From NCBI RefSeq assembly GCF_045037415.1, contig NZ_CP173438.1: a stretch of DNA of 64,000 nt. The stretch is one strand, 5' to 3'. The notes below the pieces were generated by a model. It was given only the letters and a program-made list of their open reading frames with translations, was not told the DNA's origin and made no database searches. Shown piece after piece: positions 42,127-62,857 of the stretch. This stretch comes from Escherichia coli. Lineage in GTDB: Bacteria; Pseudomonadota; Gammaproteobacteria; Enterobacterales; Enterobacteriaceae. Each line of letters begins with the position of its first letter. The first letter of the stretch is position 1. The position numbers and the translations under genes are program-made.

Positions 42127-42687
42127 ATGAACAAGTTTTTATTTGCCGCTGCATTGATCGTCAGTGGCCTGCTCGTTGGCTGTAATCAACTCACCCAATA
42201 CACCATCACCGAACAAGAAATTAACCAGTCGCTTGCGAAACATAATAATTTCTCAAAAGATATCGGTTTACCCGGCGTGGCTGACGCCCATATCGTTCTG
42301 ACAAACCTGACCAGCCAAATTGGTCGCGAAGAGCCGAATAAGGTTACCCTAACCGGAGACGCCAATCTGGACATGAACTCCCTGTTCGGTAGCCAGAAAG
42401 CGACCATGAAACTGAAGCTGAAAGCGCTGCCCGTGTTTGATAAAGAAAAAGGCGCGATCTTCCTGAAAGAGATGGAAGTGGTCGATGCGACGGTACAACC
42501 GGAAAAAATGCAAACGGTGATGCAAACGTTGCTTCCCTATTTAAACCAGGCATTACGCAATTACTTTAACCAGCAACCTGCTTACGTCCTGCGCGAAGAT
42601 GGCAGCCAGGGCGAAGCAATGGCGAAGAAACTGGCGAAAGGCATTGAAGTGAAGCCAGGCGAAATTGTCATTCCGTTTACTGATTAA
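42127..42687 (+). CDS. yceB: lipoprotein YceB (DUF1439)
   Basis: ORF with MNKFLFAAALIVSGLLVGC... start at ATG 42127 (186 aa); lipobox LVGC. Confidence 0.9.
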   Translation: MNKFLFAAALIVSGLLVGCNQLTQYTITEQEINQSLAKHNNFSKDIGLPGVADAHIVLTNLTSQIGREEPNKVTLTGDANLDMNSLFGSQKATMKLKLKALPVFDKEKGAIFLKEMEVVDATVQPEKMQTVMQTLLPYLNQALRNYFNQQPAYVLREDGSQGEAMAKKLAKGIEVKPGEIVIPFTD

Positions 42688-42692
42688 TCACG

Positions 42693-42718
42693 AGGGCGCA
42701 TTCGCGCCCTTTATTTTT
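42693..42718 (+). terminator. rho-independent terminator of yceB
   Basis: Stem agggcgc/gcgccct with 4-nt loop followed by TTTATTTTT. Confidence 0.85.
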
Positions 42719-42724
42719 CGTGCA

Positions 42725-42741
42725 AAGGAAAACGTTTCCGC
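42725..42741 (+). promoter_or_regulatory. candidate PurR operator upstream of pyrC
   Basis: Palindrome aGGAAAACGTTTCCgc centred on AAACGTTT, about 60 bp upstream of the pyrC ATG; pyrC is a known PurR-regulated gene. Confidence 0.6.
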
Positions 42742-42792
42742 TTATCCTTTGTGTCCGGCAAAAACATCCCTTCAGCCGGAGCATAGAGATTA

Positions 42793-43836
42793 ATGACTGC
42801 ACCATCCCAGGTTTTAAAGATCCGCCGCCCAGACGACTGGCACCTTCACCTCCGCGATGGCGACATGTTAAAAACTGTCGTGCCGTATACCAGCGAAATT
42901 TATGGACGGGCTATCGTAATGCCCAATCTGGCTCCGCCCGTGACCACCGTAGAGGCTGCCGTGGCGTATCGCCAGCGTATTCTTGACGCCGTACCTGCCG
43001 GGCACGATTTCACCCCGCTGATGACCTGTTATTTAACAGATTCGCTGGATCCTAATGAGCTGGAGCGCGGATTTAACGAAGGCGTGTTCACCGCTGCAAA
43101 ACTTTATCCGGCAAATGCAACCACTAACTCCAGCCACGGCGTTACGTCAGTTGACGCAATCATGCCGGTACTTGAGCGCATGGAAAAAATCGGTATGCCG
43201 CTACTGGTGCATGGTGAAGTAACACATGCAGATATCGACATTTTTGATCGTGAAGCGCGCTTTATAGAAAGCGTGATGGAACCGCTGCGCCAGCGCCTGA
43301 CCGCGCTGAAAGTCGTTTTTGAGCATATCACCACCAAAGACGCTGCCGACTATGTCCGTGACGGAAATGAACGGCTGGCTGCCACCATCACTCCGCAGCA
43401 TCTGATGTTTAACCGCAACCATATGCTGGTTGGTGGTGTGCGTCCGCACCTGTATTGTCTACCCATCCTCAAACGCAATATCCACCAACAGGCATTGCGT
43501 GAACTGGTCGCCAGCGGTTTTAATCGTGTATTCCTCGGAACGGATTCTGCGCCACATGCACGTCATCGCAAAGAGAGCAGCTGCGGCTGCGCGGGCTGTT
43601 TCAACGCCCCAACCGCGCTGGGCAGTTACGCTACCGTCTTTGAAGAGATGAATGCTTTGCAGCACTTTGAAGCATTCTGTTCTGTAAACGGCCCGCAGTT
43701 CTATGGCTTGCCGGTCAACGACACATTCATCGAACTGGTACGTGAAGAGCAACAGGTTGCTGAAAGCATCGCACTGACTGATGACACGCTGGTGCCATTC
43801 CTCGCCGGAGAAACGGTACGCTGGTCCGTTAAATAA
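42793..43836 (+). CDS. pyrC: dihydroorotase
   Basis: 347 aa [38 protein letters not shown]... with metal-binding HxH motif. Confidence 0.97.
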
Positions 43837-48819: not shown

Positions 48820-49740
48820 ATGACGAATCTACCCAAGTTCTCCACCGCACTGCTTCATCCGCGTTATTGGTTAACCTGGTTGGGTATTGGCGTACTTTGG
48901 TTGGTCGTGCAATTGCCCTACCCGGTTATCTACCGCCTCGGTTGTGGATTAGGAAAACTGGCGTTACGTTTTATGAAACGACGCGCAAAAATTGTGCATC
49001 GCAACCTGGAACTGTGCTTCCCGGAAATGAGCGAACAAGAACGCCGTAAAATGGTGGTGAAGAATTTCGAATCCGTTGGCATGGGCCTGATGGAAACCGG
49101 CATGGCGTGGTTCTGGCCGGACCGCCGAATCGCCCGCTGGACGGAAGTGATCGGCATGGAACACATTCGTGACGTGCAGGCGCAAAAACGCGGCATCCTG
49201 TTAGTTGGCATCCATTTTCTGACACTGGAGCTGGGTGCGCGGCAGTTTGGTATGCAGGAACCGGGGATTGGCGTTTACCGCCCGAACGATAATCCACTGA
49301 TTGACTGGCTACAAACCTGGGGCCGTTTGCGCTCAAATAAATCGATGCTCGACCGCAAAGATTTAAAAGGCATGATTAAAGCCCTGAAAAAAGGCGAAGT
49401 GGTCTGGTACGCACCGGATCATGATTACGGCCCGCGCTCAAGCGTTTTCGTCCCGTTGTTTGCCGTTGAGCAGGCTGCGACCACGACCGGAACCTGGATG
49501 CTGGCACGGATGTCCGGCGCATGTCTGGTGCCCTTCGTTCCACGCCGTAAGCCAGATGGCAAAGGGTATCAGTTGATTATACTGCCGCCAGAGTGTTCTC
49601 CGCCGCTGGATGATGCCGAAACTACCGCCGCGTGGATGAACAAAGTGGTCGAAAAATGCATCATGATGGCACCAGAGCAGTATATGTGGTTACACCGTCG
49701 CTTTAAAACACGCCCGGAAGGCGTTCCTTCACGCTATTAA
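48820..49740 (+). CDS. lpxL: lipid A lauroyl acyltransferase
   Basis: ORF with [34 protein letters not shown]... start at ATG 48820 (306 aa). Confidence 0.93.

Positions 49741-62206: not shown

Positions 62207-62857
<651 letters not shown>

Follow-up and report, generated by a model that had tools for sequence, protein, structure and literature searches.

The PurR box of Escherichia coli pyrC: a relatively weak operator within a conserved promoter frame

The purine repressor PurR, a homodimer of the LacI family, binds DNA once it carries hypoxanthine or guanine. Later work (PMC3159470, PMC6245113) credits Choi & Zalkin 1990 and Wilson & Turnbough 1990 with reporting direct, co-repressor-dependent binding of PurR to pyrC in vitro and a loss of regulation when the operator or purR is mutated. 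With reference to the same two papers, pyrC is classed as an experimentally determined direct PurR target, and it counts as one of 15 PurR-binding regions characterised through binding in vitro and mutation in vivo (PMC3159470). The fifteen known PurR sites taken from RegulonDB include the sequence GCGGAAACGTTTTCCT (PMC2585596). PurR repression of pyrC is already known, both from the literature since 1990 and from its curation in RegulonDB. In extent it has been likened to the three- to fourfold repression at carAB P1 and placed far below that of the pur genes (PMC6245113), and the PurR response to co-repressors is given as only about 2.5-fold (PMC13056197, citing Choi & Zalkin 1990 among others); the reported repression of pyrC is roughly 2- to 4-fold. 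In the one genome-wide in vivo data set that was found, a ChIP-chip study of strain K-12 with adenine, PurR was not detected at pyrC, one of only two known targets that the experiment failed to detect, and the authors could not explain this result (PMC3159470). The same study places 44% of PurR motifs between the -35 and -10 elements, which is the commonest arrangement (PMC3159470). The pyrC gene is also subject to start-site switching: at a low CTP/GTP ratio transcription starts two bases downstream, with G, while the two extra 5' C residues of the longer transcript enable a hairpin that sequesters the ribosome-binding site (PMC6524683).

The locus analysed here lies in a window of 64,000 nucleotides, by which we mean the whole stretch of DNA that was analysed. 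The succession of yceB (a lipoprotein gene) and pyrC identifies the E. coli chromosomal locus, and many complete E. coli chromosomes match the 1 kb around it with 100% identity. The gene order in the neighbourhood is rne, flg genes, murJ, rimJ, mdtH, grxB, yceB, pyrC, dinI, bssS, solA and, further on, csg. In five of 5,425 E. coli records the yceB–pyrC region is found on a plasmid-labelled record, probably reflecting mislabelled or split assemblies. The stop codon of yceB ends at 42687 and the ATG of pyrC starts at 42793; the RefSeq annotation gives no regulatory feature at this locus. The features of the intergenic region are collected in Table 1.

Table 1. Coordinates of the features at the yceB–pyrC locus, numbered from the first letter of the window.
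Feature	Coordinates	Strand	Evidence
16-bp PurR operator (PUR box) AGGAAAACGTTTCCGC	42726..42741		rank 1 with two matrices; RegulonDB-listed reverse complement; conserved in 16/16 other Enterobacteriaceae loci
Perfect 8-bp palindromic core AAACGTTT, central CpG 42733-42734	42730..42737		axis between C42733 and G42734
yceB intrinsic terminator, stem-loop GAGGGCGC-ATTC-GCGCCCTT plus T-run	42692..42719	+	terminator scan
-35-like GTGCAA (3/6 to TTGACA), 17 bp from -10	42720..42725	+	read from sequence; conservation
-10 hexamer TATCCT of the pyrC promoter	42743..42748	+	(nearly) invariant in Enterobacterales sharing the promoter frame
PyrC leader, Rfam RF02372	42743..42792	+	68.7 bits vs gathering score 50, E = 7.8e-11, full-length model match
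Alternative start sites C, C, G of CCGG, CTP/GTP-sensitive switching	42755..42757	+	PMC6524683 description mapped onto the sequence
pyrC CDS, dihydroorotase, 347 aa, regulated gene	42793..43836	+	ORF list and RefSeq annotation of identical E. coli DNA

The box was scored with two independent matrices, from both of which pyrC was excluded: (i) a matrix of the 28 motif instances under the ChIP-chip peaks in Table 1 of Cho et al. 2011 (PMC3159470; hereafter the ChIP matrix), and (ii) a symmetrised matrix of 14 RegulonDB PurR sites. With the ChIP matrix the pyrC 16-mer scores 16.5 bits and ranks first among 127,970 window positions (the runner-up reaches 14.4 bits), and with the symmetrised matrix it scores 16.6 bits and again ranks first. 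Eight of the 28 known sites fall below the pyrC box in a leave-one-out comparison with the ChIP matrix, as do five of the 14 RegulonDB sites with the symmetrised matrix, while the pur biosynthetic operators in the training set all lie above it (17–25 bits), guaBA excepted. A PurR matrix scan was one of the checks named in the original prediction of a PurR-type operator, and the resulting score is moderate, not poor. From the exact score distribution, p is 1.2e-6 per position; a score of 16.5 bits would arise by chance 0.15 times in the window, 0.0006 times in 250 bp of upstream sequence and ~11 times in an E. coli genome. By itself the matrix score is only suggestive, and the case is carried by position and conservation.

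At the level of single bases, the outer positions A1, G3, C14 and G15 of the box agree with PurR. Positions C8, G9 and T11 are invariant in the 28 ChIP sites, and the pyrC box carries C8 and G9. Its position 13 is C, compared with G in 27 of the 28 ChIP sites, at a penalty of 4.9 bits, and position 16 costs a further 0.5 bits. The GCAA motif is absent from both half-sites (A at position 4, C at position 13), and a single training site out of 28 (gadX), which is also the weakest, lacks it in either half. Since the exact 16-mer is a curated PurR site, the missing GCAA is treated as a marker of operator strength and not as a criterion of membership. The pyrC box is a relatively weak operator.

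Comparison with the documented pyrC operator, which had likewise been proposed as a check, reveals identity: GCGGAAACGTTTTCCT is the exact reverse complement of 42726–42741, and it is listed in the opposite orientation because pyrC lies on the minus strand in K-12. A full-text search with the plus-strand form of the box returned unrelated matches and one Haemophilus influenzae purB prediction only, and a literature search for ChIP-exo data on pyrC yielded no usable result. Rank 1 in the matrix scan and the verbatim reverse complement in the RegulonDB list both support the predicted PurR-type operator, and the segment 42726–42741 is almost certainly the curated PurR operator of E. coli pyrC.

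Several other PurR-like matches are present in the window. Three 16-mers lie on the minus strand at the 3' end of csgD, just before csgE (62600–62615, 62816–62831 and 62832–62847), with scores of 12.2, 14.1 and 14.3 bits. Two of them are directly adjacent, the whole cluster spans less than 250 bp, and together they account for three of the eight best matrix matches in the 64 kb analysed. No ChIP peak is reported there by Cho et al. 2011 (PMC3159470), and the cluster is probably due to chance or to coding-sequence composition. Isolated matches inside or near coding sequence are found at 49436–49451 (inside lpxL, 14.4 bits) and at 21671–21686 (13.4 bits), which are scores at the level that chance predicts for the window.

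The symmetry of the site differs in part from what had been predicted. The sequence GGAAAACGTTTCC is located at 42727–42739, that is, within the predicted interval 42725–42741, and the location therefore holds; its description as a perfect 13-bp palindrome does not, as three positions differ from its own reverse complement and odd-length DNA is never self-complementary. A perfect palindrome is present in the 8-bp core (Table 1). A second, overlapping symmetry is formed by 5-bp arms, GGAAA and TTTCC, flanking the three nucleotides ACG, with an axis on C42733, half a base off. Within the 16-bp PurR frame, five of the eight symmetric pairs match about the PurR axis, and AACGTTT is invariant in an alignment of 15 Enterobacteriaceae sequences. 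The AAACGTTT core occurs three times in the window against 1.87 expected, which is the chance frequency, and we rejected it as stand-alone evidence for that reason. The arm pattern GGAAANNNTTTCC occurs once against 0.09 expected.

The position of the box relative to the pyrC promoter agrees with the prediction. It had been placed about 60 bp upstream of pyrC and just after the yceB terminator; its centre lies 59.5 bp and its end 51 bp from the ATG, and the terminator (stem-loop 42692–42711, T-run up to 42719) ends 7 bp before it. The terminator sequence is conserved only within Escherichia and Citrobacter. A consensus sigma-70 scan of 42600–42900 detected no promoter. Conservation and the published start-site description together suggest the -35 and -10 assignments of Table 1, with GTGCAA as the putative -35 element; the TGCA of this hexamer is invariant across Enterobacterales. 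The box spans -29 to -14 from the C start, which would put its centre at about -21.5, and fills the spacer between GTGCAA and TATCCT, the latter beginning one base past the box, and TCCGG follows 6–9 nt further on.

Downstream of the box, the start sites map to 42755 (C start) and 42757 (G start), and CCGGC is invariant in the Enterobacteriaceae alignment. The leader arm CCGGC (42755–42759) pairs with GCCGG (42775–42779), which overlaps the Shine-Dalgarno sequence GGAG (42778–42781). RNA folding gives a 5-bp stem of -8.7 kcal/mol for the C-start transcript, compared with 3 bp and -4.6 kcal/mol for the G-start transcript. Across Enterobacteriaceae the hairpin has invariant arms, CCGGC/GCCGGAGC, and a loop of ~15 to 40 nt.

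To compare the box across species, one genome per species was scanned with the PyrC protein, which yielded 80 loci, and the 250 bp upstream of each were scored with the ChIP matrix. The box is present in all 16 loci of other Enterobacteriaceae, at 14.7 bits or more and 49–74 bp from the start codon. Both Vibrionaceae loci also carry it: Vibrio hannami has GCGTAAACGTTTGCGT (21.6 bits), which directly abuts a -10-like TATACT, and Photobacterium piscicola has CAGCAAACGATTGCTT (15.3 bits). The stronger, more consensus-like boxes of Vibrionaceae suggest that PurR control of pyrC may be tighter there than in E. coli. By contrast, no box was found at the 18 loci of other Enterobacterales (Yersinia, Rahnella, Serratia, Erwinia, Pantoea, Rosenbergiella, Pectobacterium, Brenneria, Acerihabitans, Photorhabdus, Arsenophonus and Edwardsiella), where the maximum score is 5.7 bits; the -35 and -10 elements are kept and the left half of the box is not.

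Reported PurR orthologs are limited to Enterobacterales, Pasteurellales and Vibrionales (PMC4052901), and the outgroups can therefore be used as negative controls. The box is absent from 43 of the 44 outgroup loci, one of which scores 11.4 bits and the others at most 8.7 bits. The remaining locus, from an Erythrobacter sp. MAG, carries GCGGAAACGCTTTCGT (14.4 bits) 99 bp upstream of pyrC; alphaproteobacteria are reported to be without PurR, and this sequence could be a chance match or the site of another LacI-family regulator. The 18 Enterobacterales loci also lack the box, in an order that is reported to have the protein (PMC4052901).

The Enterobacteriaceae alignment outlines the footprint sharply: there is hardly any change in TGCAAA, the box, TATCCT or CCGGC, and free drift on the terminator side and in the hairpin loop. 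Substitutions within the box occur at position 2 (G/C), position 4 (A/T) and position 16 (C/T), and all of these bases are tolerated by the PurR matrix; position 13 is C or A, never G. In Enterobacter sp. Ag1 the best match (GTGCAAACGATAACGT, 14.7 bits) comes from a frame that begins 5 bp further upstream and takes the invariant -35-like TGCAAAC as a GCAAAC half-site. The same shifted frame was considered as a second site in E. coli and rejected, given CC at its centre and a poor score. Of 5,424 E. coli genomes, 5,359 have an identical 85-bp promoter/leader, and only 1,106 of 5,425 reach 99% identity or more over the 1 kb around it.

To ask whether the promoter alone could account for this conservation, we anchored the Enterobacterales promoters on CTTATCCTT and compared column conservation between Enterobacteriaceae and their sister families. 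Conservation of the -10 region is 0.97 in both groups and that of the -35-like element 0.96 in Enterobacteriaceae and 0.89 in the sister families, while the left half of the box with the CG centre falls from 0.94 to 0.43 and the right half from 0.94 to 0.73. The shared promoter frame thus works in the sister families in the absence of the left half, so that promoter function alone does not explain the conservation of the box. The conserved left half in Enterobacteriaceae calls for a sequence-specific binder.

Families without the full box still retain part of the conservation of the right half, TTT[C/A]CGC, which hints that it may also serve the promoter. Eight loci from Yersinia, Rahnella, Pectobacterium, Brenneria, Acerihabitans and Edwardsiella share the arrangement GATGCAT, ~10 variable bp and TTT[A/C]CG-CTTATCCTT. 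In these promoters, which lie ~60–110 bp upstream of pyrC, the right half of the box is present and the left half and CG centre are absent; their start-site region reads CCCCGCCG, compared with CCCGGC. A promoter role of the right half might be why the PurR-optimal G never occurs at position 13.

From these patterns a composite operator, kept weak on purpose, can tentatively be proposed, although we consider it somewhat less probable than not. Its right half (never TTTGCG) would belong to a promoter core found throughout Enterobacterales (RTGCA, a 16–17 bp spacer and TTT[C/A]CG-CTTATCCTT), its left half and CG centre would be confined to Enterobacteriaceae, and Vibrionaceae would have a separate box of consensus strength at the same spot. 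If this is true, PurR control of pyrC would be a lineage-specific gain or loss within one promoter frame, and operator strength would be capped by the promoter constraint at position 13.

The mechanism of repression can be outlined as follows. PurR represses the pyrC promoter by way of its documented operator, almost certainly 42726–42741. As the box lies in the -35/-10 spacer, we infer that RNA polymerase is excluded: the bound dimer would block open-complex formation, by a steric occlusion to which the position from -29 to -14 points. Repression is modest, and the operator is sub-optimal, with GCAA in neither half-site and C13 in place of a near-invariant G. PurR control overlies the main, pyrimidine control of pyrC, in which the CTP/GTP ratio selects the start within CCGG and the leader hairpin accordingly hides the Shine-Dalgarno sequence or leaves it accessible. 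Two weak half-sites are also a plausible reason why ChIP-chip missed pyrC.

The same weakness raises the question of whether the operator, genuine in vitro, might be physiologically marginal, with low occupancy in vivo and a conservation owed equally to the needs of the promoter. The ChIP-chip result, which pyrC shares with just one other known target (PMC3159470), is in line with this reading, as are the small reported repression, the lack of GCAA in either half-site (otherwise seen only in gadX among the 28 ChIP sites) and the retention of the right half at 0.73 in families without the full box. However, a single negative ChIP-chip experiment with 50-bp tiling is weak evidence of absence, and the literature describes measurable purR-dependent regulation of pyrC (PMC3159470, PMC6245113). 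The contrast between 0.94 and 0.43 for the left half and CG centre in the same promoter frame indicates selection for the complete box, and the substitutions at positions 2, 4 and 16 are all of a kind that the PurR matrix tolerates. Overall, we regard a marginal operator as unlikely.

A second question is whether the site serves mainly a different repressor of the LacI family whose motif is similar and likewise centred on AAACGTTT, such as RbsR or Cra/FruR, its likeness to PurR sites being secondary. The C at position 13 fits the RbsR and Cra consensus, which we take to be GAAACGTTTC; the A found there in other Enterobacteriaceae is presumably unlike either consensus, whereas the bottom-strand GCGTAAAC resembles a PurR half-site. 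The outer positions A1, G3, C14 and G15 fit PurR. PurR arose from RbsR and kept its motif (PMC4052901), but this very 16-mer is a curated PurR site and pyrC offers no sugar-metabolism logic for a regulator of this kind. This makes another repressor as the main ligand very improbable. More improbable still, to the point of being negligible, is a chance palindrome or a mere conserved promoter spacer with no transcription-factor role. The number of AAACGTTT cores in the window is what chance predicts, about 11 sites of such a score are expected per genome, and RefSeq annotates no regulatory feature, all of which would suit that idea; yet the box ranks first in the window and sits inside the promoter spacer of a nucleotide-biosynthesis gene, it is kept in 16 of 16 Enterobacteriaceae and two of two Vibrionaceae loci, whereas the spacer drifts in sister families that share the -35 and -10 elements, and it is a curated experimental site, so that the literature contradicts a chance feature. 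A PurR operator of pyrC remains the preferred reading.

As a discovery the pyrC box carries little weight, PurR repression of pyrC having been known since 1990. A real 16-bp operator that was spotted from sequence alone is nevertheless a useful positive control. The only mildly new element is the lineage pattern of the box inside a conserved promoter frame. This comparative pattern, with the full box in Enterobacteriaceae and Vibrionaceae and the right half only in relatives of Yersinia, Pectobacterium and Edwardsiella, is of modest value for understanding regulon evolution, and it may help to account for the weakness of the operator and for the ChIP-chip miss.

Among known systems, the closest is the E. 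coli pyrC PurR operator itself (RegulonDB GCGGAAACGTTTTCCT): sequence (as the reverse complement), gene and organism are the same, and the box is that site. Orientation of presentation is the only difference found between the strain of the window and K-12. A predicted PurR site at hflD-purB of H. influenzae, AGGAAAACGTTTCCGT, shares 15 of 16 bases with the pyrC box, including the unusual TTTCC right half, although it concerns another gene and organism and is a prediction only, among the lower scores of its list (PMC3739930).

The canonical pur-regulon operators (purF, purL, purHD and purT; consensus ACGNAAACGTTTGCNT) share with the pyrC box the 16-bp frame, the central CpG, the AAAC/GTTT core, G3, C14 and the overlap with the promoter between -35 and -10. 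They differ in that the pyrC box has C13 instead of G, and A4, and hence GCAA in neither half. Its score of 16.5 bits compares with 19–25 bits for most pur-regulon operators in the leave-one-out analysis (17.2 for purMN), its repression is modest compared with about 10-fold for those operators, and it was not seen by ChIP-chip. In function, the PurR boxes of pyrD and carAB are the nearest counterparts, as they too mediate a weak, purine-dependent cross-regulation of pyrimidine synthesis. Unlike the pyrC box, the pyrD box (CGGAAAACGTTTGCGT) has a consensus right half and scores 21 bits, and the carAB box lies far upstream, at -128.5.
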